From positions 62,001 through 83,164 of the forward strand of contig MEDY01000191.1 in NCBI GenBank assembly GCA_001724265.1: a stretch of 21,164 nucleotides of DNA. Direction: 5' to 3'. This DNA is from Rhizaria sp. SCN 62-66. Taxonomy: Eukaryota. Position 1 is the stretch's first letter, and each line of letters starts with the position of its first letter. The notes beneath the pieces were generated by a model, which was given only the letters and a program-made list of their open reading frames with translations, had not been told where the DNA came from and did no database searches. Of this stretch, positions 325-21,164 are shown in pieces. The translations under genes and the position numbers were made by a program.

Positions 325-2679
325 TCAGGCGCGCTTGCGTCCGCGCCCGCGGCCATTACCGACGCGCGCCATGATGGCGAGCACAAGGGTCGCGGCGGCG
401 TTGGCTGCGGCGACCAGGACGGTGCCGGCGACGGACACCACGGTCGCCGCCACGCCCCACAGATGAGCCAGCGTCGCGTCGGATGCGGCATCGCTCTCGG
501 AGACGGCACCGGTCGCACTGCCATCTCTGGCGGCGGCGACGGCGGTGTCCGCGGACGCTCTCGGGCTGGTGGTGCTGCTGCTGCTGTCATTCATGTTGGC
601 GCCCGCGACGGGGGTGCCGGGGAAGGCAAAGGAGCTGGCGCGGGTCAGCAGGCTCAGCGCGAGGCTGGGGGCGCTACTCTCGCTGCTCGCAGGCTGCTGC
701 TGAGCCGCCTGCTGCTGCTGCTGCTGCTGGCGCAGCAGGGCCTTGCGCGCCTTGCCGCTGCTGGCGCCCTTACCCGCGCGCTTCTTGCCGGGGGACTGCA
801 ACGCGAGCTGGCCGCCCGCGGCGACGGCCTTGCGCGCGGCCGCGGCCGCGTCGCGGTGCTCGTCGGCCCCGTCGTCGTCGCTATCCTCCTCGTTGTCCGT
901 CGCCCAGCCGGAGTCGTCGCCACGCGCCTCTTCCGCGTCCGCGCCGCCCTTGCTGCGCACCATAGTGACCGCCGCGCCGCTGGCGGGCGCTACTGGGGTC
1001 GCAGACGAGAAGGACGACGACGGCGACAGGGAGCCGTCACGATCCTTGCTGTCGCCGCCAGCGTTGCTGCTGAGGTTGCTGCGGTGGCCCTTGCCGGGCG
1101 TCCGCGACGCCTTGGTGCTCGCACTTGCGTTGTCGTTCATCTAATCACTCTAGCGGCGCAGACGGCGGAGCGCGGCGGCCTCGGCCTCAGCCTCAGCGGC
1201 AGCCTCAACGGCGTTGGCGGCAGCCGTGGCGGCAGCGGCGCGGGTGGCCTCGGGCCCCTGGTAGGAGAGGTAGACCTCGAGCACGGTGACCATGATGCCC
1301 GAGAGGAGCGGGCCGAGGATAACGCCGATGGTGCCGAAGACGTAGAGACCCATGGCGAGCGAGGTGCCGACGAGGAAGGTGTTGCCAGGGATGATGCCGT
1401 AGATGAGCGAGTCGCCGGCCGAGAGCAGGAGCTGGACGGTGACGACGAGCACGGCTTTGACGGGCGCGCCGGTGATGGCGAGCCCCGCGGCGACGGGGAC
1501 CCAGACGACCCAGGACGAGAGCACGGGCAGCATGGCGGTGAAGCCGGCGATGAAGGACAGGATCAGCGAGATGTCGATGCCGACGAAGAGGAACACGAGG
1601 TACGTGCCGAGCATGTGCGAGAGGCCGACAGCGGTGGAGGACACGAAGACGGACACGACGGACTTGTTGAGCGAGCGCATGAGTTTGCCCGAGTCCTCCT
1701 GCGAGAAGGGCGAGAGGTCGGTGAGCAGCCCGCCCCACGACAGCTGCGTCTGCAGGAAGTAGAAGAGGCACGACGCAAAGGTCACGAACGAAACAAGCAG
1801 CGAGACCGAGTCAGCGAGCACGCCCAGGACGCCGCCCAGCGCGCCCGTGAGGTGGTTGCTAAACTGCATCGCAGTGTCGACGATCGTGGTCTTCACCACC
1901 GCGGCGTCCCAGGGCGGCAGCTCCCAACCCCACGTCTTGGCGTAGCGCTCGAACCAGAGGTAGTAGGGCGAGGAGCCGAAGTCGTCAAGCAGCGTCTGGA
2001 ACTGCGGGTTCTCGTCAACGAAGGCCTGGATCTTGGCGACCAGTGCCTGGGACTCAGAGATACACGACTTGACGAAGAGGAAGAGCGGGAAACAGACGAG
2101 GAAGGCGACGACGGCGAGGCACAGTGTGGCCGCCACAGTCGAGCGATTCGCCCAGATGAGGAAGGACCAGGCGGAAAAGACGACGGTGGCAACGAGCACG
2201 TTGAGCAACGCCTCGGAGCTGGTGAGCAGGATGAGGACGTAGACGGCGAGCGAGCACAGGTACACGGGGACGCGGTAGGCAGAGATGGCGACGTCGAGCC
2301 GGTCCAGCGCGCGCGTCGTCACCAGCAGCGGCTTGTGCAGGAACACGGACCAAAGCAGCGCCCAGAGGATCGGAGTGAGGTGCGGCAGCAACATGAGGCC
2401 GTTGTAGTAGACGAGCAGCACGATGAAGAGCAGCACGAGCACCTGCGACAGAAAGTCGAACGTGCGCTGGATGCGCGCCTTCTTCAGCTGGTTGTGGATC
2501 TTCATCAGATCAGAGTCGCTGGGGGCAAACAGAGAGGACGATGAGCACTGCTGCATACCACCCGCACTCGCGTCAGCGGAGCCAGAGGCATCAGAGGTTG
2601 TTGCAGACTTGTTCTGCCTGTCGCTGCTGGCGGCGTTAGGGGCTCCAGAGCCCTGTGCGCCGCGGTTCTTAGCGGACAT
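325..2679 (-). CDS. TMEM245-like / AI-2E transporter superfamily multi-pass membrane protein; 784 aa if TAGs at 1150-1152 and 1141-1143 are read as sense (509 aa if TAG is a stop)
   Basis: ATG at 2679. Many hydrophobic helices. Motifs HLTPILWALLWSVFLHKP, LSFIAGFTAMLPVLSSWVVWVP and GLYVFGTIGVILGPLLSGIMVTVLEVY resemble TMEM245/AI-2E proteins. ORF 1150..2688 and ORF 325..1140 are in the same frame, separated only by TAG AGT GAT TAG. Terminal TGA at 325-327. Confidence 0.8.
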
Positions 2680-3776
2680 TATGCCCACAAAAGATGTCGC
2701 TGCGCAGGTCAGGCATGTAGGTCCGGTTGCATTGCAAGATCAGTTCAATGACAAACGAATGGGTGCGGGAGAAGGTAAGTGAGTGAGCATGTGGATTTAG
2801 GCGTGAGGGTTGATTTTGGCGAGTCAATTTGTCAACAGGGTGATCGTCAAAGACAAGTGTTTTCACAGAAAATGACTGCATTTATAAAAATAAACGCAAT
2901 GTTCATAAAACATAACGGTGCCTTATGGATTCGACTCAGGACGCATCAATCTACGTCGGGGCCAGCTGTGCGCCAACTCCATACTGGCGCTCGCGCGGAT
3001 AATGTGATGCGCAGCCCAACGAAAATACGTATCTCCCTCAGCTACGCTCGCCTGAAAGATATTTTTCTGCATACTTTCACTAGATATCATAAGATGTTCG
3101 TGTGACAGACAGTATGCGTACATTTTGAGTTCATTCATGAACGTATGTACCCCCAAATCCATGTTGATAGTTTAAAACGAGTGACATTTGAATGAGCATG
3201 CATTTGTATTGCTTTCTCAGTTGCGAGCACAGAACGCATCATTTTGTGCACGTATAAAAGGTTTTGGATATTGAACAGTAGACTATAGAATGGAGGGTCT
3301 GCGCAGACAGAGAGGCGCAGCCACACTTGTTGAGACTAACTAAGCGATTGGCAGACACGAGGCAGAATCAGACAACAAGCCACTTCGCACAGACATTAAG
3401 TACGGAGAAAAAACTGGAACTGAAAGCGAAACACGACAGCGCAACGAAACTAAGAGATACAATAGATTGAGATGATACACTGAACATAAGCACATGATTT
3501 GGGAAAACATTTAAAAATATGCACTAAAAATGCTACTATCGTCAATTTTTGGCATGGTGTGAGAACTGATGCAGCAAAGCTCAAGACCCGAACTAGTCGC
3601 CGCGCGCGCTCAACGCCGCATACATGGTACTTAGACAGTGAAGACACTTAGAGAGCAAAAAAGGAAACAAAAGAAGAGATAAAATAGATACTGAGCTGTT
3701 TGGGAGCAGGCTTAAATTCATCCGTTGCCACTCCCCGCTCGCAGCAGCCAGCGGCACCGGCAGCAGACAGCACACC

Positions 3777-4046
3777 TTACTGCTACTGGTGCTGCTGCTG
3801 CTGCTGGAGCTGGCGCTACTGGTGGTCCGCGACGACCTGCGCGACGAAGATCTGCAGCAGCTGGTCGGGGCCGACGTGCTCGAACTGGCCCTGCAGCCCA
3901 GCCAGCTGCTGCAGCCACGCCGCCAGCACCGCCTCGCGCTCCGTGGGGACGGGCTCGACCAGCTCCGCCAGCTGCCGCAGCTGCTGCACATGCGACTCCT
4001 GCAGCTGCAGCAGCTGTTGCTGCTGCGGCTGCTGCGGCTGTTGCTG

Positions 4047-4089
<43 letters not shown>

Positions 4090-5025
4090 AGCTGCTGCTG
4101 GTAGTGCAGCTGTTGATGCTGTTGAAAGTACTGCTGCTGCTGCTGCTGCTGCTGCTGTTGTTGTTGCTGTGCCTGCGCCATTGCCTGAGCCTGAACCTGT
4201 GCCTGTGCCAGCGCTTGGGCCTGCGCCTGCGCCTGCGCCTGCGCCTGTTGCGCGAGGAGGAGCGCCTGGAGGTTGTCGAGCGCCTGCTGGTTCCCCTGCG
4301 CGATCTGCAGCGCGACCGCGTCGCCGAAGCCCGCCGACTCGCGCAGCGCCTGCAGCCCCGCGGGGCCGAGCGCGGCCAGGTCGCTGGCGCTCAGGCCCAT
4401 GCCGGCTACCTGCGCGGCGAGCTGAGCGGCGACCGGAGCCTGCGGCGCGGCGGGCGGCACCCCCAGGCCGCCGCCTACCGGGGCGCCCGCGAGGACCAGC
4501 GCCTGCAGCAGGAGCTGCTGCTGCTGCTGTTGCTGCTGGAGCTGTTGCTGCTGCTGCTGCTGCTGCTGGATTTCGACCTGGAACTGGTGCTGCTGCTGCA
4601 CCTGCTTGAGCTGCCGCTGCATTTGCTGCTGCTGCTGCTTCTTCTGCTGCTTCTTGTCCAGCGGCCCGGGAGACAGCTGAGGCGCGGCGCCAGTGAGCAT
4701 GTACCCGTTCGCTGCGGCTGCAGCTGCCGCGGCGGCGGCGCGGGCCTCCTCGAGCGCGCGCTTGCGCTCGCGCCCGTCGCGGTCGCGCTCCTCGCGGGCC
4801 CGCGCAGCCGCCGCGACCTCGGTTGCAGCCACGGCCGGGGGCGCCCATTCGGCCCACTTGTCGGCCACCAGCGCGCGCGCCTCGGCCAGCACGGCGCTGA
4901 CCACGGGCAGGATCGCCTCGATGTCGCGCTCCAGCTCCGCGGCCGGCCGCGGGACGGAGGCGTCCAGCTCGGCCAACGCCGCGGCGTCGGCCGCGGCCTC
5001 GGCGGCCTCCGGGTCCTGCTCAGCC

Positions 5026-5057
<32 letters not shown>

Positions 5058-8000
5058 ACCGTCGCTGCCCGCACCACCAGCACCAGAGCGAGCGGCAGCG
5101 TTGTCGTCATCGTCGTCGTCTTCCTCGTCGTCGGTGGCGGCTGCGGCTGCGGGGCTGGGGGAGGCCAGCGGGGGCAGCCCGGAGCTGCGGCGCGTGCTCG
5201 TTTGCATCGGCACCCCCGTCTTGTTCCACCACGGCAGTCCGCCGTTCGCACCCCCACTCGCACTCGAGCCGGAGCCGGACTCGGCGGCAGCTTTCGAGCT
5301 AGCAGCAGCCGTCTTGCCGCTGGCCTCACCCTGTCCCTGGCTCTGGCTCTGGCTCGCCCGCGGCTTAGGGGCGAACGCGGGCCCGCCCTCGGCCGCGCGC
5401 CTGCGGCGCTCGTCGCTGTGGAGGTAGCCCGCGACGAGGCGCTTGGGCAGGCGCAGGCGCAGCGACGCCGCAGGCGGGTCCCAGTCGCTGGCGTCAGCCA
5501 GCTCGACGGCGCCCGCGAGTGGGTGCGACGGATCCAGCAGCTCGGGCGCGAACGCGGACCCGTCAGCCGCGATCACCACGATGCCGCGCGCGTTGGCCGC
5601 CGCCGCCCAGGCCGCCGCGTCGTCGGCCGCACCGGCGCCGGCGCCGTCGCCGCCCGCTGCTGCTCCCGATCCAGCTGCTACGCCTGCTGCTGCGCCTGCT
5701 GCTGCTGCTGCTGCGGCGGCGGCGGCGGCGGCACCGGGGGCCTTGGTGTTCCCGCCGAAGAGCTCCGCGGCGCGGCGCGTGATGGGCGGCGCCTTGAAGT
5801 TGGGCCGCGTGTCGGCCTCGTCGTCGGTGTGCTACTCGTCGCTCTCGCCGCAGTAGACGCCGGGCTGCAAGTCGGGGTCCGTCTGCGCCTGCGCCTGGAG
5901 CGCGGCCACCGAGGGCGGCGGCGGGCGCGCGGTCGCGAAGCGCGCGCGCACTGAGGGCAGCACCAGGGCCGCGATGCGGTCGGCTACGTTCGACGGCGAG
6001 TCGACGTCGGCGAAGTAGCGTGACTGGAAGCAAACAAACAATCGAAATTGGAATAGGACAACGCGATATGTGAGAATTATGAAGTGAAAACAAAATAATC
6101 AAGGTTAAAACAAAGTAAACAATATTATATGAAGTAGTTATACGTGCAAGAATAAGATATCATTTCGTTTTCTCTTCATAGTGTTGCGTTTTAGCATACC
6201 TGCAGGTCCATCTCATCGAGCGCGGGCAGCGGGATGATCCGCAGGTCCTCCCCGCTGGCGACGATCGCCTCCACAGTGGGCGCCTCCTCTGGCCCCTGGC
6301 CCTGCAGCCGCTGCTCGGCGTGCTTGGCGAGCGCGCCGGGGAGCCAGTTGCGCTGGAGCCAGTCTGCGCGCAGGTCCCGGAGCCGCGCCTCGAGCACGTG
6401 GCCCGCGACGCGGTACTCGACCAGCTGTTCGTGCTCCAGCGCCACGCGCTCGTAGTCGCGCGCGCGCCGCAGCCGCCGCTGGTGCAGGCGCCGCAACAGG
6501 CGCAGCCGCTTCCAGCCGCGCTGCAGCGTGCGAAGTTCGCGCTCGCGGTCGCGGCGCGCGGCGTCGAGCGCCGCCAAGCGCTGCGCTTCGCGCGCCGCCT
6601 TGTCGTCCTCGCGCTTGCGCCGCTGCTGCTCGGCGTGGGCGCGCCGCTCCGCCTCGATGCCGCGCAGCCGCTCCAGCTCCGCCTCCTTGCGGTCCGCCAC
6701 CGTCACGCGCGAGCGCTCCGAGCGCTTGCGCGGCAGCAGCTGCAGCCGCATGCGCCGCTCGGCGGCGCGCGCCTTGGTCGCGAACGACGCCCACAGAGGC
6801 GGCAGCACCGCAGTCAGCAGCGCCGTGTGCAGCGCGGCGGCAGCGCGCACGGCGCCCGCGGCGCGCGGGAAGGGCGACGGAAGCGCGAGACGCGCGGCAA
6901 CGCGCGCGCGGGCGGCCGCCTTGCTGTCACCGTCCTCGTCTTCGTCGTCCTCGTCGCTCTCCTCGTCGTCGTCGCCGCCGTGGCGGGGATGCGCCGTGGC
7001 AGCAGCCTTGCCGTGGCCGCCGCCGTCCGCGCCGTTGTCGTCGCCGTCCTCGTCGTCTGCGGCGGCCGCGGCGGCGGTCTGCGCGTTGCGCAGCGCGCGC
7101 GCGGCGCGGGCCTCCTTCTCCGCGGCGGCGGCGGCGGTTGGCGCGACTGCAAGCGCGCCGCGCAGCGCGTGGGCCAGAGCCTCGAGCTCGGGCAGCGAGG
7201 TTGCCACCACAGTCCACACCGGGGTCGGGGCGGGGGGCACGAACAGCCAGCCGGGACACTCTTCCAGCAGGTCGATCGCGCTCGCACTCGCGCTGGCGCT
7301 GGCGTTGGCAGCAGAGGCAGCGTTGTGGCCGTCGTCGTCGTCGGCGTCAGAGGCGAGGTCGGAGTCGTCGCTGACGTCGCTGTAATTGTTGGCCCCGTCG
7401 CTCTCGCTGGCGTCACCGTCGCTGTCAGCCTCGGACGCAGCCTCGGAATCGGACGCATCAGCCGCAGACTCGGCCTCGGCCTCAGTCTCAGAGGACTCCG
7501 ACTCTGTTTCTGACTCAGTCTCGGAACTCTGCTCATGCGCACGTTTGCGCCCGCCGCGGGCCGCGCCGCCCCGGACGGTCGTGGCCTTGGCCGCCGCGGC
7601 CTTAGCAGGCGTCTTCTGCCCCCGCGCACTGGCGCCCTTGGTCGATGCGCCCTTGACGGGGGTGGCCCTGGCGGAGCGGGATCCGCGGGGACTGGCGAGC
7701 TCGACCTCGCTCTCACTGCCACTCTCGCTGCCACTGCCACTCTCGCTGCCGCTGGCGTCGTCGCTGCCGCTAGAGCCGCGCCTAGCGCGCTTGGACGTAT
7801 TGCTGCCGCCACGGCCGCCGCGGCCGCCGCGACCACCGCGACCGCCGCGGCCGCCGCGGCTCGTCGGGGTCTTAGCCGGGGTCTCCTTGGCCGGAGTCTT
7901 ACCGCCCTTGCCGCCCCTGCCGCCGCTGCCCTTGCTGGGCGTCTGGTTCTTCGCCCGCTCGGCCTTAGCCGCGGCCTTGGCCTCGGCCGCCGCGGCCTTG

Positions 8001-9990
8001 GCCTCGGCCCTGGCCCTGGCCCGCGCCTTGTCGCGCCGCCGGTCGCGCCGCGCCTTCTCGCGCGCGTTCTTGGCGGCCACCGCGCTGTCACGGCCGCCGG
8101 TGAGCTGCGGCGCGACGGGCGTCTCGCGCCACACCCACGTGTCGTCGGGAGCGAAGCGCCAGTAGAGCCCGCCGCAGCCGTCGGCGCCGATGGGGCGCGG
8201 CCGCAGCCACTCGAGGTCCGCGCCGGGCGCCGCCGCCGCCGTCTCGTGCTCGGTCAGCGCGGCGCCGTGCGGGTGCGGCGCGAGGAGCGCGGCGACGGCG
8301 GCCGTGCCGGCGGGCGGGACGGCCAGCTCGGGCGGCGGGAGCGGCGGGCAGCCCGCGTGAGCCTCCTTGAAGAGCGTGTCGGCAGTGTCGAGCTGGTGTT
8401 GGCACAGCAGCAGCAGCACGTGCAGCCGCTCCTCCACGCTCAGCGCGGAGAACGACCGCAGCGCCGGCGCGGGCGCGGGGGCGGACGCCGGCGCGGGCGC
8501 AGCACTGGTAGTCGTGACGGGGTCCGTGTCCGTGTCCGCGGCGGCAGCGGCAGAGGCGGCGGTGGCGGAGGGCGGGGGCGCGGGGCCGTGCACTGCGGCA
8601 GCGGCAGCGCCGTCGCCGTCGGTCATAGCTGTAATTGCAGTCTCACCGGCGATCGCAGTAAGGGATGTGTCCGCAGAGTCTGTAGTCTTGCTCTTGCCGG
8701 CCTCGGTCTCGGACTCTGAGCCGGAGTGCTCATGCTCGTTGTCGTGGTCGTGGTCAGAGTGATCGTGGTCGTCATGATCGTCCTCGTCGTCGTCCTCCTC
8801 ATGGTCATGGTCATGTTCGTGGTCATCGGCGTCGGCGTCGGCGTCGGCAGCGGCGCCACTGCTGCTGCTGCTGCCGCTGCCGCCGCTGCTCTTGGCCGCG
8901 TTGGCGGCGCGCGCGGCGGCGCGGGCGGCGTTGCTCCTGTTACGGCTGCGGCTGCTGCCGCCGAGCCAGAGCCGGCTGCGGTTGCGCGAGCCGCTGCGCG
9001 CGCCGTTGGCGAGGGCCCTCTCAGCGGCGCGCTCGGCGGCGGCCGCGGCGGCCTGCGCCTTGGCCTCTGCGCGGGCCTTGTCGACGGCGGCCTGCTCGGC
9101 ATTGGTGAGCCGCGGCGCCGTCATGGGCGTCCCGCGCAGGTCGTAGGCGACGGCGACGTCGGCCAGCACGGCGCGCAGCACCTCGGGCCAGCGGTGGAAG
9201 TGGGACTCGCGCAGGCGCTTGAGCGACAGGCCGGCCGCGGGCACGCCCGGGATGTCGCGGCCCTTGTCGAAGATGAGCCGCCAGATGAGGTGGCCGAAAA
9301 GCGGGGAGGAGTCGGGGAAGATAATCGCCTGCTCCAGCTCGTCCAGCGTGTAAGGGCCCAGCGCGAACCAGGGCTTGAAGGCGACGACGAACGACACCAG
9401 GGCGGCGAAGCGCCACGAGGGGCGCAGCTCGGCTGGGTGGGCGCGGGGTGGGGAGCAAAAAAGAGAGAGGGACGCAGAAAAAGCCGTTGTAAAATATAGA
9501 GCGAGTGTTCAAGTGAGCGGTGCAGATGTGGGGCGCAATGCGAGCGAGATGAAAAGAGACACTGTGCGCGTTTTGGCGCTCTCGACCAGATACTCCGATG
9601 ACAGCAGATTCGGGGCGAAAGAGTGGTTTGGGCGCGCAGAAGCGTTACAGCGCGCAACAAGCAGGTGCCAAGCAGCTGAGTATCTGGTACATCGGCGGCG
9701 CCGGCGTTGGGCAGAGCGTGGCACGGTGCCAGCGCAGGCGAAGGGCAGAACAGGCGTGTGCGCGGGCTGCCGTCAGAGTGATGTGTGGTGGCGGGACGCG
9801 TCGGGGCGTGCGAAGAAGCGAAACAGGGATATAAATAGCATGGCAAGATAAGAAACGTACCCCGAAGACGGTCCGCCTCTGCGGACGTGTTGCGCTGGAA
9901 GATTTCGTGCTGCGTGAGCTCGTGGTCGTCCTCATCGGGCGCCTGCGAGGGGGAGCCGAGGGGCTGTCCGGCGCCATGTGAGCCGCTCAT
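3777..9990 (-). CDS. DDT-WHIM domain chromatin-remodelling accessory protein (RSF1/CECR2/plant DDT-like), about 1869 aa; join complement(9861..9990, 6200..9432, 3777..6023) with three internal TAG codons
   Basis: Splicing exon 1 to exon 2 rebuilds a DDT-like segment (RLRAELRPSWRFAALVSFVVAFKPWFALGPYTLDELEQAII...LIWRLI). WHIM1-like FSALSVEERLHVLLLLCQHQL; WHIM2-like LRPRPIGADGCGGLYWRF...WVWRE; WHIM3-like WTVVATSLPELEALAHAL. Both introns are GT-AG and phase-compatible. Exon 3 stays in one frame through TAGs at 5832, 3816 and 3783 to TAA at 3777-3779. The 3' end depends on the genetic code. Confidence 0.8.
3780..4650 (-). repeat. CAG/CAA-rich polyglutamine and (QA)n coding region at the C-terminus of the DDT-WHIM protein
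   Basis: Long (CTG)n/(TTG)n runs on the + strand at about 3790-3806, 4000-4170 and 4510-4650, plus GCCTGC hexamer repeats at about 4170-4245. Confidence 0.9.
6024..6199 (-). other. Spliceosomal intron 2 of the DDT-WHIM gene (176 nt, phase 0)
   Basis: Donor CAG|GTATGC, acceptor TGTTTGTTTGCTTCCAG|TCA, AT-rich; joins DEMDLQ to SRYFADVD in frame. Confidence 0.88.
9433..9860 (-). other. Spliceosomal intron 1 of the DDT-WHIM gene (428 nt, phase 1)
   Basis: Donor G|GTACGT; pyrimidine tract ending CCCACCCAG|CC; the splice restores the N-terminal helix of the DDT domain. Confidence 0.78.
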
Positions 9991-10509: not shown

Positions 10510-10783
10510 ATGAGCAGCCCCTCCCCAGCTGCAGTGAAGCCCTTCGCGCTGGGCGCAGCACTGGGCGTCGCCTCGGCTGCGGTCGCCTTCTGGCTCTTCT
10601 CTCGTCTCGCCCCCTCGCCCTCAAAGAACAGTAATGTGGGTGTGAACGCCTCCGCGTTGAGTCTGGCCGAGGATGGCGATACGCCGCCGCCGCTCTCCCC
10701 GCTCCCGCTGCCGACTGCCACATCTGTCACTGTTTCCGTACCGCCCCAGCGCGCTCCGCTGCACGTATCCGTCGCCGACGCAG

Positions 10784-10828
<45 letters not shown>

Positions 10829-13221
10829 GCAACAGCACTACAAGCAGCAGTGGCCTTAATGGCAGCCTGAGCGACAAGGCGCCCCGCACCCTTGGCCTTG
10901 GCCTCAACACGAGCGCCAACAGCAGCAGCGCAAGCAGCAACGGCAACGGCAACAGCTCCCGGCGCAGCTACGGCGGCCTCGTCTCCCCGCGTTCCGCCGG
11001 TGTCCTCTCCCCCACCGCCGCGCACCGCGCTGCTCACGGTTACCCGGCCGCCACCCCCAGCGGCGGCGGCAGCGGCAGCGGCGGCCGCGCCGCGCGTTCC
11101 CCCTGGGCTCCCTCGCCCTCCTGCAGTAGCAGCAACAACGGCGGCAGCGGCAGCGGCAGCGGCAGCGTGACTCCTGCCGAGCGGGCGCGCGCGCGGCGGC
11201 AGTACGTGCGCTCGCACCTGGCGGCGCTGTCCTCCGAGCGCGCCTTGGCAGACGCTGTCGTCGCCGTATTCGACACCATCGTCCAGCAACGACCCGCCAA
11301 CAGCAACAACAGCAGCAACACATCCACTCCCTGCGAGACCGCGTCCTCATTCTCCGGCCCATTGTCGCTCAGCTCGCCGCCGCAGTCGCACGCGCGCGCC
11401 GCCGCGGTGTGCGCGGCGCTGACGACACGCGAGCCCCTGCAGGCGGCGCTCTCGTTGGCCGAGGTCGAGGCCTTCCTGGCCGCGCTGGGGCTGACCCAGA
11501 GCGCCAAGGCCGCCGTGCTCGTGGCCCTCCGCGGCACGGCCGCCGCCACCGCCGTTGCCGGCAGCAGCGTGAGCGCCGCGCCGCGCGTGGGCGACGGCGG
11601 CCGCGCCAGCTCGCCTGCCAGTGCCGACGCCGACAGCGCCGCCGACGCCGACGCGGGCTGCGAGGGACTGCTGTTCACCCGCGCGGCGTTTGAGGCCGCG
11701 TTCCGCGTGTGGGACAGCGAGCCCGCGGCGCGCGCCAAGCTCGACGCCTTTGAGCAGTACTACGTCGAGCAGTACCTGCCCACGGTCACTGACGGCGCCA
11801 GCAGCAGCAGCAACGCTGACGGCATCGGCGAGGGCGCTGCGGACGAGGCTGGTGCTGCTACTGCTGCTGCTGCTGCTGCTGCTGCTGTAACTGCCACTGT
11901 GCCGAGTGCGCGCCCCGCTGCCGCCCCTCGAGGCTCCCGCAGCAACGCCTCTGGCGCTGGCGCTGGCTCTGGCTCCGGGGCCGGCTCTACCACAGGTTCC
12001 GGGGCTGCGACGCCCGCGGGCGCCACCACTCCCGCCGGCGGCTCCCCCAGCGGCGTCGTCCGCCGCGTCCTCGTCTCCAGCGCCAACAACAACGGCAGTG
12101 GCGCTCATGCGGTCAGTGGCAGTGCAGGCGTAGTGCCGGCCACTCCTGCTAGCAACAACAACAGCGCGCCTGTGTCCCCGAAGCCTGCCAGCAGCTGCAG
12201 CGGTGCCTCTAGCGCGCCTGTTCCCAACGCCAGCGCCAGCGCCAGCGCCAGTGCTAGTGGTGGCCGTGTCGGCGGCTCGACTACCCGCGCCCGCCCGCTG
12301 CCGGCGCTCATTTTCCCCGAAACTCCCCGCACCGGCCCGAGCTCGAACAATAACATCAGCGCGAGCAGCAGCAGCAGCAGCAGTAAGGGCGCATTCACAT
12401 TCGCTTCTGTGCCCGAAGACTCCCCTCTCCCTAACTCGAACACTCCCGGCGACGACGCTCGCAGCAAGCTCACTGGCGGCGCCACCGCGCGCAGCGGCAG
12501 CGCGCGCAGCAGCAGCGGCGTGGACGTGTTCCTGGGCGGCGTGTGCGGCAGCTCCACGTGGCGGCTCGACACGGCCATCCCGGCGCTGGAGCGCCACGGG
12601 CTCTCCTACTACAACCCGCAGGTCGCGGACTGGAAGCCCCAGGTGATGTGCCTGGAGAACCTCATGAAGGCGTGGGCTCGGTGGCAGCTCTTCGTGGTCG
12701 ACGCCTCGACGCGCGCGACCGCGAGCATGGTCGAGGCCGCGGCGCTCATCGCCGAGGGCCGCAAGGTCGTGTTGGTCCTGGCCGCTGTCGCCGCGGGCGC
12801 GCAGGTCGACGGCGGGCCCGCGCTGGGTGAGCTGGAGGCCAAGGACCTCAACCGCGGACGCGCTTACCTGCGCGAGGTCGCCGCGGCGCACGGCGTCGCG
12901 GTGGCAGAGACCGTCGCGCAGGGTTGCGAGCTGCTCGTGGCCGCCATCGAGACTGAGGCCGAGGCAGAGGCCGCCGCGGAGGCGGAGGCAGAGGCGGAGG
13001 CGGAGGCGCGCGCTGCCGAAGCCGCCGACGCGCTGGCGCTCGGCGTGGACGAGGCGGGGGATTACTATGGGGACGACGACGACTGCGACGGTGACGGCGA
13101 CGGCAAAGGCGGCTGCAACAGCGGTGGCCGGCTGGCTCGGGGCGGGGGGCCCGACTTTGAGAGCGAGGTGCGCATGATTCACTCCAGCGACGACGACGAT
13201 GACGGAAACGATAGCGATTGA
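10510..13221 (+). CDS. 903-aa protein with an N-terminal transmembrane anchor, long low-complexity linkers and a C-terminal Raw-like / nucleoside 2-deoxyribosyltransferase-like domain
   Basis: Single ORF from ATG to TGA. Hydrophobic FALGAALGVASAAVAFWLF near the N-terminus. Domain at about 12520-12950: DVFLGGVCGSSTWRLDTAIPALERHGLSYYNPQVADW...LFVVDASTRATASMVEAA...DLNRGRAYL, matching my recollection of the Drosophila Raw repeat (VFLGGSC..TTWR..AIP....YNPQV..W; DLNRGR.YL). Confidence 0.85.
10786..10827 (+). repeat. (AAC)14 microsatellite encoding poly-Asn
   Basis: Perfect trinucleotide run, in frame within the Raw-like gene. Confidence 0.95.
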
Positions 13222-13607: not shown

Positions 13608-14243
13608 TTACTCCTGCTTCTTCTTGAGCGTGATGACGACGTTGTCGTGCGCGCCCTGCAGCAGCAGCGGCGAGTCGTACGTCAGCAGCCCGCGCGTCTT
13701 GGAGTTCTTCAGCGTCGCGGCGAGCGCCTCGAACGTGTTGGACACCTTGTCGTCCTGCGCGCAGCACGCACGAACACAAATGCGAGTGGAGCATACAAAA
13801 GTGGGGATATGACACGGAAAATAAGCATTAATAAAAAAAATCGAAGTTATAATATGGGCCTCAAAATAAAACCGTTTAGGAGTAGTGAATTCAGTCAAAT
13901 ATCGAAATTAGTGCGCTGAAGTGAGTTCTGTGACGGACCTTGAATAGCTTGCCGAAGGTGATGGAGTAGGAGCCGTCGGCGTTCTCGGTGCCGAGGGCGC
14001 GGATAAACTCCTGCAGCAGCACAATCTCCTCCTCGTTCTTGCGCTTAATCTGCGGTGGAGGGAAGCCGGGAACAACAAATATATATGGGTAGACAGCAGT
14101 GAGATAAAAGGGCGACAGAGGGGAAGATCCGAAACGACGACGTAGCGAGAAGGATACGCAGAGCGAAAAAGAGGATCGAGCGGAAAGTATGTGTGTAGTG
14201 GGCATAAGCGTACCTCGTCGACAATGGCCTGGGACTGGGACAT
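13608..14243 (-). CDS. ABRACL: Costars family protein (ABRACL-like), 95 aa; join complement(14214..14243, 13939..14049, 13608..13754)
   Basis: Spliced product MSQSQAIVDEIKRKNEEEIVLLQEFIRALGTENADGSYSITFGKLFKDDKVSNTFEALAATLKNSKTRGLLTYDSPLLLQGAHDNVVITLKKKQE has the Costars signature (EEI..L...I..LG..N.DG...FG.LF.DD...N.FEAL..TLK..K......Y...LLLQG.HD.V.I.L). Two phase-0 GT-AG introns. An upstream in-frame ATG lies at 14279. If TAA is sense, the end moves to TGA at 13596-13598. Confidence 0.93.
13755..13938 (-). other. Intron 2 of the Costars gene (184 nt)
   Basis: AAG|GTCCGT ... GCGCGCAG|GAC; joins LFK to DDK of the conserved motif. Confidence 0.9.
14050..14213 (-). other. Intron 1 of the Costars gene (164 nt)
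   Basis: GAG|GTACGC ... CCTCCACCGCAG|ATT; pyrimidine-rich, phase 0. Confidence 0.82.
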
Positions 14244-14678: not shown

Positions 14679-17600
14679 ATGAGCGAGCCGACGTACACGG
14701 TCGAGAAGATTCTGTCGCATCGTGGGCGCGACGCCGATCTTCAGTACCTGGTCAAGTGGGTCGGCTACGATGAGGAAGGCGACAACTCCTGGGAGCCCGC
14801 CGAGAACTTCCTCGACCTCAGCGTGCTGGCGCAGTACAAGCAGCAGGCGCACCTGCCGCTCTCGGACGCGGAGCGTTACTCGCTTCTCACCGCCACACCC
14901 GTGCCAGCCCCCGCACCTGCGCCTGCGCCGGCCAAGGCATCGACGACTCCGAAGGCCTTGATCTCGAATAAGGCTAAGGCAGTGCCTGCGCCCGCACCTA
15001 CTACACCGAGTAGCGGTAACAGCTCTAGCAAGAGCAGCAGAGCGCCTGCGTCTGAGGCCGTGGCCGCTGCTGCTGCGACCGGCCCCACATCATCGCCATC
15101 AGCATCCTCGTCGTCATCATTGTCATTACTGGCGGCAGCGACTGCGTCTGCGCCTGTTAAGCCGCCGCCGGCGACTGCATATGTGAAGCCGGCGGCTGAT
15201 ACCGAGGTATCAGCCTTCAAACCCAGCATCAGCGCCAGTGCCAGCCCCAACTCGAGCAAGAGTTCGAGCTTTAAGTCAAGCTCTGGATCTAGTAAGACAG
15301 ACAAGGCCGATAAGAAGGACAAGAAAGATAAGAAGGACAAGAAAGATTACAAGGAACGCTCTTCTTCTAGCAGCAGCAGCAGCAGCAGCAGTAGTAGCAG
15401 CAGTAAGGACAAGAAAGAAAAGAAGAACAAAAAGGACAAAGACGACAAAAAGGACAAGAAGGATAGCAGCAGCAGTAGCTCCAAGGACAAGGACAAGAGC
15501 CGCAGCTCCACCTTCGTCTCCAGCATCGCCCCATCCTCTGCTCTCGCCCACGGGCCCAGCCCCATGCCAGTAGTACCTCTCTACACCGCGGCCCCCGCCG
15601 CCGCCGCCTCGGTCCCTGTCTCGTTCCTGGCGCTGACGGCTCCCTCCAAGCTCGCAAGCGCCATCTCCGCCCCCGCTCCCGCAAGCAAGGTCGCGGCCCA
15701 CTCTCCGAGCGCCCACCTGACCCTGTCACTGCCGCCGCCGGCCATGGCCATGGCCGCGGTGCCCGTCGTCGGGCCCGAGGAGCCGCCCCTGGTGACGCCC
15801 GCGGTCCACGCTTGGGTGCAGGCGCAGCTCGTGGCCGAGCCCGCCGCGCGGCGCGTGTGCGCGGGGCTCACCGCCGTGCTCGACGCCGCCACCGGGGCCC
15901 GCAGCCCGCTGACCGAGGCCACCCGGGGCGCCGACGCGGCGCTGTGGCGGGACCGCGTCGCGCCGCTGCCGCCGCCCGCCGCGCGCGCCTTGCTCACGTA
16001 CGAGATGCCGCCCGAAGAGGAGCTGCTGCCCGGCGCGTCTTTTGTGCCGAAACTCACACTCGTTAGCGCGGAACAAGGTACGCGACTGGCTCACCGCTGC
16101 TTGGTTTGACTTAAATTTTGCTTAAAACGTATTGATCATGGTTTTAATGTGATGTTTTGGAATTAAATCTTACCTAAAACATGAATCTCTCACGATATTT
16201 CTCCCTAATTTTGTGTGTTTGTTTCGATTTTCTTTGTTCGTGCGGTACAACAGTGCGCAAGAATGACATCGCGTTCGCGTCGAAGTACGAGGTGCCGATG
16301 ATGGTCCATGCTGCCATGTGTACCGTCGTCGGGCTCACCGCGAAGCAGTCGATGCACAAGACGCTTAGTGACGCGCTGCCGCAGATGCGTCTGAGTCCCG
16401 AGACGCGGGCCGCGACGCTCAACGTGCTCGACGACGCCGCCGAGTGCATCGCCACCAAACTGGTACGCAGCTTATCCTCAGTTCAAGTCGCCAAACCATC
16501 ATATCTCCAAATCCAAAGAACTACTCAAGGAATATACTCGAATTTGTATGACTAATTTATCTGTCTCTTTCACAATATATTTTGCTTTTATCTCTGTATT
16601 CTCTGATGTGCGCCATATACTTCTTGTTTTTCTCTCTTCACTCTCGCTTCCCACTTCCCCAGTCCACCAAGCGGCTCACAGTCGCCGAAGCCCGCCAGCG
16701 CCTCAAAGTCGCCAAGGAGGCCCTTGTAGCCGCCCAGAAGGACTCCGACGACAAGGCGAAACGCGCGCACACGGCCGAGAAACTCTCCGCGCGCGCCGCT
16801 GAGCGTGCGCGCGTGGCCAACACCGTGGGGACGCGCACCGACGCCGCAGCGCAGGCGGCTACCGCGGCCGCGGCCGCGCGCACCGCTAAGGAGGCCGCGG
16901 CCGCCGTGGAGGACCGGCGGAAGGGCATCGCGGATGCCGAGGCCGACCTCAAGCTTGCGATAGACACGAAGCTCCGGTCGGGCGTATCGAGGACGGGGGC
17001 GGCGGTGGCCGCGGGGATCGCGGCGGTGGCCGCGATCAGTGGTGGCACTGCCGCTGCCGCAGCTGCGGCTGCCGCTGCTGTTGATGGGAAGAGTAATGCT
17101 GGCAAGTATGACGACAAGAAGGACCGCAGCAGCAGCGGCAGCGGCAGTGCAAGTAGTCATGATGCCGGCGACAGCAAGAGCAAGCCTATTAGCGACAAGA
17201 GCGGCTCACACAGCAGCAGCAGCAGCAGCAGCAAGAGCAGTGACGCCAAGCCTGCGAAATATGACGATAAGTCTAAGGGTCTGTCGAAGGAGTCCAAGTA
17301 CAGCTCCAAGCCGTCGAAATCTTCTGATAGCTCCAAGTCCAAGAGCTCTAAAGACTGGTCCTCGAAGAAGGCGTCCAAGAGCACGAGCAAGAGCAGGAGC
17401 AGGAGCCGGTACAGTGACGACTCGAGCTCCAGCTCTCTCTCGGACTCAGACTCGTTCTCGGACTCCAGCTACGGCTCCGACTCGAGCTTTGACTCGGACT
17501 CAGACTCGGACTCGAGCTCCTACTCCGACACAGCCTCAGACTTCAGCTCGAGCTCGAGCCCCAACTCCAGTTCCGACTCCTCGGACTCTGAGCTCGACTC

Positions 17601-17859
17601 CGACTCCGAGTCAGAGCGCCGCCGCCGCAAGTCAAGCAGCAGCACCACCAGCAGCTCGAAGACGAGCTCCCAGTCAAGCAAGGCCAAGTCCAGGACTCCG
17701 TCGCAGCACAAGCGCGCTCTGTCGGACGACTATAGCGACCCCGACAGCGACGCTGACCGCACGGGCAAGGGCAAGCAGAGCTCGAGCTCGAGGTCCAGCG
17801 GGGCTGTCGGTGCTGTTGGCTCTGGCAGCGGCGATAAGCGCGCGCGAGGTGGGCAGTGA
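14679..17859 (+). CDS. Chromodomain protein, 934 aa; join(14679..16077, 16254..16462, 16663..17859)
   Basis: N-terminal chromodomain YTVEKILSHRGRDADLQYLVKWVGYDEEGDNSWEPAENF with aromatic cage residues Y, W and Y. It is followed by P/A/S-rich and KDK-rich segments, a higher-complexity central region, a predicted coiled coil and an S/D/K-rich tail. Both introns are phase-compatible. Ends in TGA. Confidence 0.87.
15295..15500 (+). repeat. (KDK/KKD)n charged repeats interleaved with poly-Ser (AGC)n
   Basis: AAGGACAAG/AAAGATAAG 9-mer variants encoding DKKDKKDKKDKKD and KDKKEKKNKKDKDDKKDKKD. Confidence 0.85.
16078..16253 (+). other. Intron 1 of the chromodomain gene (176 nt, phase 1)
   Basis: CAAG|GTACGC ... 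T-rich ... ACAACAG|TG CGC AAG. Confidence 0.85.
16463..16662 (+). other. Intron 2 of the chromodomain gene (200 nt, phase 0)
   Basis: CTG|GTACGC ... pyrimidine tract ... CTTCCCCAG|TCC ACC AAG. Confidence 0.85.
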
Positions 17860-18365: not shown

Positions 18366-19505
18366 TCACATCTCCTCCTGCGAGCGGCGCACGATCTGCC
18401 TGATCTTGCGCTTGTAGCCCTCGGGGTCGGTCTTGAACTGCACGCACGCGTCGACGTTGGCCGGCGAGTCGCAGTTGGGATCCGTGAGCATGGACACAAC
18501 CGAGAGCAGCACCTGCTCGACGCCCAGAATGGGCCGCCACTTTTCGCTCACGGGCTCGTTCGAGTTGTACTGGTCCTCGGCCGGCTCGTGCAGGATCGAG
18601 ATGCACACGCGGCCGTCAGGGAACACGTTCGGGTGCCAGAAGCCCTTGGTCTGGAACGTCATCTGCGGCGGATGCTCGGGGAAGTTGCGCGGGAAACGCA
18701 GCGTGGCCGGGAAAAGCCCGCCCTCGAAGGCCGTGTCCTCGGGGCCCTGGATCAGCACGCGCCAGTGGTAGATGTCGTCGCCAATCAGCCCCACGTTGAG
18801 CCCGTCGGGCGGGTCGCGGGACATCTGCTTGAACTGGCTGCGCAGGATCGCCATGCCGTAACCCGCGCCTTGCGCCGCCGAGCGGGACCGCTTGTTGCTG
18901 TTGCTGTTGCTGCTGTCTGCAGCGCTGCTGCTGCCCGACTGCTGCTGCGACGCCACCGCGGCCGCGGCCGCGGCCGCGGCTGCGGCGGCAGCGCCAGCAG
19001 CGGCGGCCGAGGAGGTAGCCGTCGCGCCGTTGCTCCCGATGATGTGGTTGCTGAAGGACGGCGCGGCGACTGCGGCGTTCGCGATGGCGGCGGCAGAGCT
19101 CCACGAAGACCGTACCAGACCGCCGTCGCTGCCGCTGCCACTGCTGCCGCTGTCATTGCTGCTGCTGCTGCTAGTGTTGGCGCTGACGCTGGCGGTGGCG
19201 TTGTCGCTGGCGACGACGTCGTTGTAGGTGCGGCGCGGGCGCGGCGGCACCGGGACGGGGGCCTCGGTGTTGCTGTCACGCTCGCGGTCGCGGGAGGAGG
19301 AGGAAGAGAACTGAGGGGCGGAGCGGGCGACGGCGGCGTCGATCGCGGCAAGAGTGTTGCTGCTAATGCTCGAAAGTGCGGACGCGGGGGCCGCCGGAGA
19401 CGCGGATGAGGATGCCGAGGAGGACGACGACGAGGCGGATGAGGTCGCCGTGACCTCATCGGTCGAGTTGTCGCTCTGGGCTTGAACAGGAGACATCGAC
19501 GACAT
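18366..19505 (-). CDS. UBC7: Ubiquitin-conjugating enzyme E2 of the Ubc7/UBE2G (Cdc34-related) class, 379 aa, with about 210 aa of S/A-rich N-terminal extension
   Basis: UBC fold: WRVLIQGPEDTAFEGGLFPATLRFPRNFPEHPPQMTF...WHPNVFPDGRVCISILH (catalytic Cys), acidic loop insertion EPAEDQYNSNEPVSEKW and PNCDSPANVDA. First ATG at 19505 in CAACATG context. Ends in TGA. Confidence 0.92.
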   Translation of the reverse strand: MSSMSPVQAQSDNSTDEVTATSSASSSSSSASSSASPAAPASALSSISSNTLAAIDAAVARSAPQFSSSSSRDRERDSNTEAPVPVPPRPRRTYNDVVASDNATASVSANTSSSSSNDSGSSGSGSDGGLVRSSWSSAAAIANAAVAAPSFSNHIIGSNGATATSSAAAAGAAAAAAAAAAAAVASQQQSGSSSAADSSNSNSNKRSRSAAQGAGYGMAILRSQFKQMSRDPPDGLNVGLIGDDIYHWRVLIQGPEDTAFEGGLFPATLRFPRNFPEHPPQMTFQTKGFWHPNVFPDGRVCISILHEPAEDQYNSNEPVSEKWRPILGVEQVLLSVVSMLTDPNCDSPANVDACVQFKTDPEGYKRKIRQIVRRSQEEM

Positions 19506-20699: not shown

Positions 20700-21164
20700 A
20701 TGCGCTTCTCTACCCTCTTCATCGCCGCCACCGCTGTCGCGACCGCCGCCCTGGCCCCCGCCGCGGCCCAGGCCCACTCCACGGCCCTCGGCGCGCTGTG
20801 CTCCATCGCGCCGGGTCACGTGCTCTGCCTCGAGGCCGCGGCCATCGCCGAGCGCGACGCGGGCCTTAACATCGACCACGACGACGACGACTCGGGCTCG
20901 TGCTCCTGCTCTGTCGGCCACCGCCACGACGGCGTCAGCCGCGAGATCGGCTTCGGCAACGGCGGCCGCACCGCCAGTACGCTCCAGTACAAGGGCAGCA
21001 AGGGCATGCAGGGCTCCTACAAGGGCATGCAGGACTCCTTCAAGGGCGGCAAGGGTATGCAGGGTTCCTTCAAGGGCGGCAAGGGCATGCAGGGCTCCTT
21101 CAAGGGCGGCAAGGGCATGCAGGGCTCCTTCAAGGGCGGCGTCAAGGGCGTGAAGGGCCAGTTC
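20700..21164 (+). CDS. Secreted Gly/Lys-rich repeat protein (3' partial; absent from the ORF track because it runs off the window)
   Basis: ACCATG at 20700, open for 155 codons with strong C/G-ending codon bias: MRFSTLFIAATAVATAALAPAAAQAHST... (signal peptide, probable AQA cleavage site), four Cys, a DHDDDD patch, then KGGKGMQGSF repeats. Confidence 0.85.
   Translation, partial: MRFSTLFIAATAVATAALAPAAAQAHSTALGALCSIAPGHVLCLEAAAIAERDAGLNIDHDDDDSGSCSCSVGHRHDGVSREIGFGNGGRTASTLQYKGSKGMQGSYKGMQDSFKGGKGMQGSFKGGKGMQGSFKGGKGMQGSFKGGVKGVKGQF
20991..21140 (+). repeat. 30-bp coding tandem repeat (AAGGGCGGCAAGGGCATGCAGGGCTCCTTC, KGGKGMQGSF), about 5 imperfect units
   Basis: Directly visible; units differ by synonymous changes, a few replacements and one 9-nt shorter unit. 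Confidence 0.92.

Follow-up and report, generated by a model that had tools for sequence, protein, structure and literature searches.

In-frame TAG codons in the GC-rich nuclear DNA of a probable rhizarian: a candidate reassignment of UAG to glutamine with UAA and UGA kept as stops

Introduction

It is rare for a nuclear genetic code to separate UAG from UAA. Between them, PMC11687900 and PMC10553269 name eight lineages in which UAG has been decoupled, four of which read it as Gln and one of which, the single rhizarian among them, reads it as Leu. Among the former type, Iotanema spirale (Fornicata) is described as having occasional in-frame UAG codons that specify Gln in its nuclear genes, with UAA and UGA as stops, and a substitution in its eRF1, T32G, has been proposed to remove the contact with the third-position G (PMC5304391; PMC9161772). 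Three ciliates, Hartmannula sinica, Trochilia petrani and Protocruzia tuzeti, are given in PMC11687900 as reading UAG alone as Gln, which corresponds to the assignments of NCBI table 15, and PMC5304391 and PMC11687900 cite the demonstration that a tRNA(CUA) of Tetrahymena decodes UAG but leaves UAA unread. Decoupled UAG may also take other meanings: Leu in Rhizaria sp. exLh (Sainouroidea), where UAA and UGA are reported as stops (PMC5304391), and, in the accounts of PMC11687900 and PMC10553269, Leu in a clade of TARA ciliates, Ser in Scotinosphaera and Glu in ciliate PL0344, the last in combination with UAA as Lys. Both UAR codons encode Gln (table 6) in many ciliates, Ulvophyceae, Hexamita, Streblomastix and Amoeboaphelidium, as tabulated in PMC11687900.

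The window described here, by which is meant the whole analysed stretch of 21,164 nucleotides, holds TAG codons that are real, in frame and inside long unbroken coding sequence. A preliminary description of its minus strand between 3830 and 3777 had taken two of these codons, embedded in a polyglutamine run, as synonymous variants of CAG, and had inferred that UAG encodes Gln, with Leu and Glu considered less parsimonious.

The window and its organism

The window is nuclear DNA of a GC-rich eukaryote with introns: coding stretches have a GC content of 70% against 46% in non-coding DNA, GC3 is 0.86, and seven gene models could be built without a frameshift. These models contain six GT-AG introns, each of 164–428 nt and with pyrimidine-rich ends, whose splicing we infer from their sequence; their donors read GTAYG in five cases and GTCCG in one, the usual donors being GTAAG and GTGAG. 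Pfam matches were obtained in six of the ten ORFs scanned (AI-2E, nucleoside 2-deoxyribosyltransferase-like, Costars, chromodomain, ubiquitin-conjugating and a sub-threshold WHIM1), and an exact look-up of eight window ORFs in a protein collection returned none of them. The genes that served as controls have no internal stops. On the plus strand, these are a gene with a nucleoside 2-deoxyribosyltransferase-like domain (10510–13221, ending in TGA), which encodes 903 aa with an N-terminal hydrophobic segment and PF15891 near the C-terminus, and a chromodomain protein gene with two introns (14679–17859, ending in TGA). On the minus strand lie a Costars/ABRACL gene with two GT-AG introns (13608–14243, ending in TAA) and a gene for a Ube2G-type ubiquitin-conjugating enzyme (18366–19505, ending in TGA), which doubled as a taxonomic marker. 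Among 40 listed of the 122 differences from the window in other sequencing runs, 33 are coding and 26 of those 33 are synonymous third-position changes, a pattern that supports the reading frames assigned to the control genes; none of the same 40 creates or removes a TAG. At the far end of the window (20700–21164, plus strand), an ORF with a signal-peptide-like N-terminus continues into 10-residue KGGKGMQGSF repeats (30-nt period) and runs off the window end; it has no Pfam match, and its product is possibly a secreted wall or scale protein.

The runs that hold at least half of the sampled words from the window comprise two from bioreactors, one wastewater metagenome and one without a label, and the RNA run X5 comes from activated sludge. 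The best named matches of the Ube2G product are all rhizarian (Lotharella, Plasmodiophora, Norrisiella, Chlorarachnion, Spongospora and Cercozoa sp. M6MM). In a Ube2G tree of 62 rows, made up of the window, the top 60 of 120 listed matches and one further named match, the window sits inside a 100/96 group with named rhizarians, with oomycetes and alveolates outside it; within this group it occupies its own branch among six environmental proteins without names, where branches are long and the order is unresolved. The motif EKWRP, combined with the absence of a PPG/APG/SPG loop, is found in the window Ube2G and in all ten of the printed named rhizarians, and in none of five named non-rhizarians. 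Placed by Ube2G alone, the organism is probably an uncultured rhizarian of bioreactors and wastewater, and the placement can be no firmer than 'probably Rhizaria' because it draws on a single gene. Rosculus vilicus does not fit, with a genome GC of 37.7%, and exLh itself is rejected on a GC3 of 86% in the window against 24–54% in five exLh genes.

Contigs of a related organism, or of a paralog, appear in runs X4 and X5 at window positions 18581–18729, 13650–14014 and 11214–11262, and differ from the window densely (by roughly 10%, judged by eye) and almost always synonymously in the Ube2G, Costars and deoxyribosyltransferase-like genes; a sister lineage in these runs could decide between Gln and Leu as the meaning of UAG. 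Half of the six environmental Ube2G proteins that group with the window (P0041, P0019 and P0029) are without the N-terminal helix, an absence that an intron, the end of a contig or a TAG in the reading frame could each explain. No DNA of the organism was found in the viral contigs scanned; by the account given in PMC13524828, a giant virus has yet to be isolated on a host with a non-standard code. Stray eukaryotic contigs of the organism were likewise absent from the prokaryote genomes scanned. Small GTPase genes of eukaryote type were observed in prokaryote genome records (L042, L037, L055 and L048): L042 is plainly a eukaryotic contig in a gammaproteobacterial MAG, with genes that, judged by eye, are Rab, coronin-like and Cdc45-like; L037 and L055 appear to be contamination as well; and at L048 a Rac-like gene sits on a Zetaproteobacteria contig of 145 kb.

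In-frame TAG codons in two neighbouring genes

Across the seven gene models, which amount to 5,119 codons, TAG occurs internally five times, in two of the seven genes, and TAA and TGA do not occur internally at all. Six of the genes are complete, and of these four end in TGA, two in TAA and none in TAG; the use of TAA as a stop is firm for the Costars gene, within what is a small sample.

Three of the five TAGs belong to a large, low-complexity gene on the minus strand (3777–9990), whose modelled exons (9990–9861, 9432–6200 and 6023–3777) join in frame and which ends in TAA. Its product is probably chromatin-associated, with a weak match to WHIM1 (E 0.0042, under the Pfam cut-off); an atlas look-up yielded a score of 0.77 and nothing more. 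A GT-AG intron of 176 nt (6024–6199, minus strand; GC 0.31), with a pyrimidine-rich acceptor at 6024, joins the ORF at 6191–9508 to the TAG-bearing exon. An X5 contig (6009–6329) reads through this intron, from 6199 to 6024, unspliced, and represents DNA, or pre-mRNA, or an error of the gene model at this point. Codon 1185 of the gene is a TAG (5832–5834, minus strand), after which 684 codons follow without TAA or TGA; it is unchanged in an X3 contig (5743–6984), and GC3 is 0.97 in the 40 codons before it and 0.95 in the 40 after. No homolog of the stretch around it was found among 460 candidates (proteins of 162–2000 aa).

The other two TAGs of this gene are those first noticed. Between 3830 and 3777 the minus strand agrees exactly with the preliminary description, with a TAG at 3818–3816, a second at 3785–3783 and a TAA at 3779–3777, all in frame with the upstream polyglutamine ORF. 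The first is codon 1857 of a gene of 1,869 codons (3816–3818, minus strand) and lies in the terminal Q-rich tract; the second is codon 1868 (3783–3785, minus strand), two codons before the terminal TAA (3777–3779, minus strand), which would be the true stop of the gene, given that the codon score falls from +0.99 over the 100 codons before it to −1.09 over the 100 after. Contigs from X3 (2989–3971) and X7 (3749–3960) cover both TAGs without a single other letter, and one from X4 (1242–3865) covers both with four other letters, none of them at any TAG. As both codons are unchanged in these contigs, which come from three further studies, they are not sequencing errors. Taken alone, the quoted 54 bases are nevertheless a weak case for a sense TAG: a run of twelve triplets without a stop has a probability of 66% in the organism's non-coding DNA, the ten codons after the TAA score +1.01 against +1.15 for the ten after TAG 3818, and the two TAGs on their own could lie in a 3' UTR. 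The pattern goes beyond chance because there are three further in-frame TAGs, one at 5834–5832 in the same gene and two, at 1152–1150 and 1143–1141, in the next.

That next gene (325–2679, minus strand) is intronless, has 784 codons, ends in TGA and encodes an AI-2E-family membrane protein (PF01594, E 2.4e-20), which we take to be TMEM245-like. Its codon 510 is a TAG (1150–1152, minus strand) with 274 codons still to run to the TGA, and so is codon 513 (1141–1143, minus strand), which is followed directly by an ATG; both are unchanged in an X3 contig (1031–2908) and in L030. That this ATG is the start of a separate gene is unlikely, the spacing being 12 nt in a genome whose intergenic DNA spans several hundred bases at a time. 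The end of the AI-2E domain precedes codon 510. A protein relative, P0122, has 45% identity to the gene product, diverges before codon 510 and offers no alignment across codons 510 and 513. When metagenome contigs were scanned with the AI-2E alignment, two loci only were recovered: L030, which is the organism's own DNA and lies inside the window, and L031, an AT-richer relative whose AI-2E gene carries no informative TAG. The L031 sequence (809–1641) is far AT-richer than the window, in a neighbourhood unlike the window's; a multi-intron gene upstream ends in TAA and, judged by eye, may encode a V-ATPase subunit G-like protein. In a public protein collection, the membrane protein is represented by a version of 509 aa that stops at the first TAG (P0121), on five contigs, the longest of 55,268 bases, an example of gene callers in practice truncating this organism's proteins.

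Coding signal continues past the TAGs. Averaged over the 100 codons that follow, the codon log-odds is +1.02 after TAG 1152, +1.09 after TAG 1143 and +1.11 after TAG 5834, against −0.78 to −1.65 in the 100 codons after all six TAA or TGA ends, and in the two TAG-bearing genes GC3 is 0.88 and 0.87 after the first TAG against 0.89 before. Runs of non-coding triplets free of TAA and TGA would reach 274 by chance with P 8e-5 and 684 with P 7e-11. None of the RNA contigs listed (from one RNA run, contigs only) lies over a TAG. TAG is, as far as the sequence allows one to judge, very probably a sense codon in this organism, and the case is carried by TAGs 5834, 1152 and 1143 rather than the quoted pair, because it is after these three that the coding signal is undiminished. 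In this respect the preliminary description is borne out, mainly by TAGs outside the segment that it quoted; its assignment to Gln stands as the best single guess.

Which amino acid does UAG encode?

If UAG is a sense codon, Gln is its likely meaning; with every other explanation of the TAGs also weighed, Gln is still moderately favoured, the case for both statements being one of sequence context and codon usage, together with the precedent of the four lineages among the eight named above that read Gln. Two of the five TAGs lie in a Q-rich context. The same kind of context takes in 95 of the 244 Gln residues in the window proteins, against 15 of 387 for Leu and 2 of 241 for Glu. The resulting Q:L ratio of about 24 is crude because two TAGs of one tract are treated as independent. 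A logistic context model, trained on the window's own proteins and run at two settings, ranks Gln first of the 20 amino acids at both, gives it 0.51–0.61 among Q, L, E, K, S, W and Y, and sets Q:L at 2.9–5.8 (about 3–6). These context figures for Gln are inflated, because the finding was picked for its polyQ sites, and at the three TAGs outside polyQ the model returns P(Q) of 0.01–0.03, places Gln below the top six and favours Asp, Glu, Arg or Asn. Among one-step routes to TAG, CAG is the largest source (25–53%) and TTG contributes 1–2%. Read as Gln, the five TAGs would stand beside 223 CAG and 21 CAA codons, or 5 of 249 (2%). The split of TAGs among genes does not discriminate (0.040 for Gln, 0.034 for Leu), all five TAGs are in poorly conserved sequence and none is at a conserved column, and neither Rfam nor ARAGORN found a tRNA gene in the window, where other Rfam families were likewise absent. 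The CAG-TAG-CAG repeat was useless as a probe, since its 29 viral matches were, by eye, mostly poly-Ala or poly-Ser in other frames.

Some residue other than Gln or Leu (His, Tyr, Glu, Ser or Lys), or ambiguous decoding, is unlikely. Under a flat prior, the probabilities from the context model are His 0.14–0.26, Tyr 0.09–0.12 and Glu 0.07, and the preference of the three non-polyQ sites for Asp, Glu, Arg or Asn points the same way. Against this, we know of no nuclear code in which UAG is His, and the polyQ sites are a poor fit for Glu, Ser, Lys and Trp (P 0.0003–0.003). The low standing that the preliminary description gave to Glu relative to Gln agrees with the scarcity of Glu in Q-rich context (2 of 241), a polyQ context being one that disfavours it; UAG as Glu and UAG as Ser are both on record elsewhere (PMC11687900, PMC10553269).

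Leu is also unlikely, whether by a code shared with the sainouroid exLh or by an independent change, in either case through a tRNA-Leu with a CUA anticodon. The organism looks rhizarian, and the sole published rhizarian reassignment is to Leu (PMC5304391). At codon 1857 a Leu would be natural (HQ-L-RQLQ, compare QQLRQL upstream), with a likelihood ratio of 2.4–3.3, and in a calibration some 1–5% of five-site sets of true Leu reach the observed Q:L score of 1.1–1.8 (95th and 99th percentiles 0.85 and 2.42). Context nonetheless favours Gln 3- to 24-fold, the one-step source TTG is rare (15 of 387 Leu codons), and the organism, on the GC3 values above, is not exLh itself. Nor is the Leu code known to be widespread, Guttulinopsis and a Rosculus gene being apparently standard according to PMC5304391. 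Gln keeps the lead over Leu that the preliminary description had claimed for it, and Leu deserves more weight than it was given there, because only two residues are more frequent than Leu in the organism's Q-rich tracts (15 of 164 for Leu), because QQLRQL occurs upstream and because UAG is Leu in a rhizarian (PMC5304391).

Less likely readings: TAG as a stop codon or as a removed triplet

Retention of the standard code, which we consider unlikely, would make the TAGs either recent nonsense changes (from CAG, GAG or AAG) in two genes whose tails are decaying or leaky stops backed up in tandem, and would make the quoted segment a formerly coding 3' UTR. At the codon usage of the window, TAG would result from 76% of random nonsense changes, and from five out of five with P 0.25–0.27; the absence of TAG from all six gene ends has P 0.05–0.26 under the standard code. 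The TAGs are paired, 3 and 11 codons apart, in a manner that resembles tandem stops (a concept treated in PMC10553269), and conservation is poor around all five sites. The truncated protein of 509 aa would keep its AI-2E domain, because the domain ends upstream of the first TAG, and the absence of a frameshift in the tails has P 0.32 if indels arise at 2% of the rate of substitutions. However, two neighbouring genes of the seven would both have to be truncated, one of them losing 37% of its length, and the alleles do not differ from study to study. For another three nonsense changes to have arisen, the 2,874 nt of tails should have taken up about 85 substitutions, alongside which 2.8–5.7 frameshifts would be expected at indel rates of 5–10% and none was seen (P 0.06–0.003), and codon bias after the TAGs is undiminished.

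Removal of the TAGs from the mRNA, as 3' splice sites or by editing of UAG to UGG or CAG, is very improbable. In its favour, the frame would survive if the donor at 6199 were spliced to the TAG at 5832, across 368 nt, and the spliced form of the large gene was unseen among the listed RNA contigs. Against it, the 192 nt lost in this way look like coding sequence (GC3 0.97) and the acceptor at 6024 is of the typical pyrimidine-rich kind, the 500 nt upstream of TAGs 3818 and 3785 contain nothing that resembles a donor, the in-frame candidates for 1152 and 1143 would delete transmembrane sequence conserved with P0122, Trp fits the TAG contexts badly, and the tracts upstream of the five TAGs are not acceptor-like, with a T share of 0.05–0.17 against 0.28–0.53 at the ends of the six modelled introns.

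The proposed code and its significance

Under the proposed code, UAG would be a rare third Gln codon in the nuclear code, with UAA and UGA still terminating translation. By analogy with described systems, a tRNA-Gln whose anticodon had changed from CUG to CUA might read UAG without wobble to UAA, and eRF1 might have lost its hold on the third-position G. The abundant CAG would be the source of TAG codons, one C-to-T transition sufficing, chiefly at places where codon choice is under weak selection, and the genome's strong preference for CAG would keep TAG rare. Whether this amounts to a second, independent change of the nuclear code in Rhizaria, and the first to Gln, in a GC-rich protist where TAG is still marginal, is a tentative matter, to which we would give slightly less than an even chance. 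If true, the reassignment would have been caught at an early stage, or would be kept at low frequency, with none of the AT pressure to which such changes are usually ascribed, and UAG would have come to mean Gln in an independent origin outside the ciliates. It would also provide a test of how eRF1 can drop one purine-ending stop whilst keeping the other, and of the need for AT pressure. Since the organism turns up repeatedly in runs from bioreactors and wastewater, across several studies, deep sequencing, culture and proteomics are feasible.

Comparison with known codes

In the literature outside subscription papers, no rhizarian with UAG as Gln was found. The code described for exLh comes from a rhizarian, as the organism probably is, and has UAG decoupled from UAA; it differs in reading UAG as Leu and in its frequency, with 384 UAG in 71 genes (PMC5304391) against five in seven here. 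The table 6 code shares with the proposal the reading of UAG as Gln, but there UAA is Gln as well, whereas here no in-frame TAA occurs in 5,119 codons and TAA ends two of six genes; table 6 is rejected for this organism, as TAA ends the Costars gene and the large gene and is never internal. Hartmannula, Trochilia and Protocruzia retain UAA and read UAG as Gln, as is proposed here. In those ciliates, however, UAG is widespread and UAA is the preferred stop, whereas in this organism TAG makes up 0.1% of codons, TGA is the commoner stop (four of six) and coding GC is 70%. Iotanema, like the organism, uses UAG as a sense codon and keeps UAA as a stop, although it belongs to an unrelated supergroup and is an endobiotic anaerobe rather than a protist of wastewater and bioreactors. 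Its Gln assignment is reported to draw on hyperconserved columns (Gln at 22 of 28) and on eRF1 T32G (PMC5304391; PMC9161772), whereas that of the organism draws on context. In its combination of in-frame UAG with a UAA stop, the code proposed here would match, and so appears to resemble, the type represented by Iotanema and table 15.
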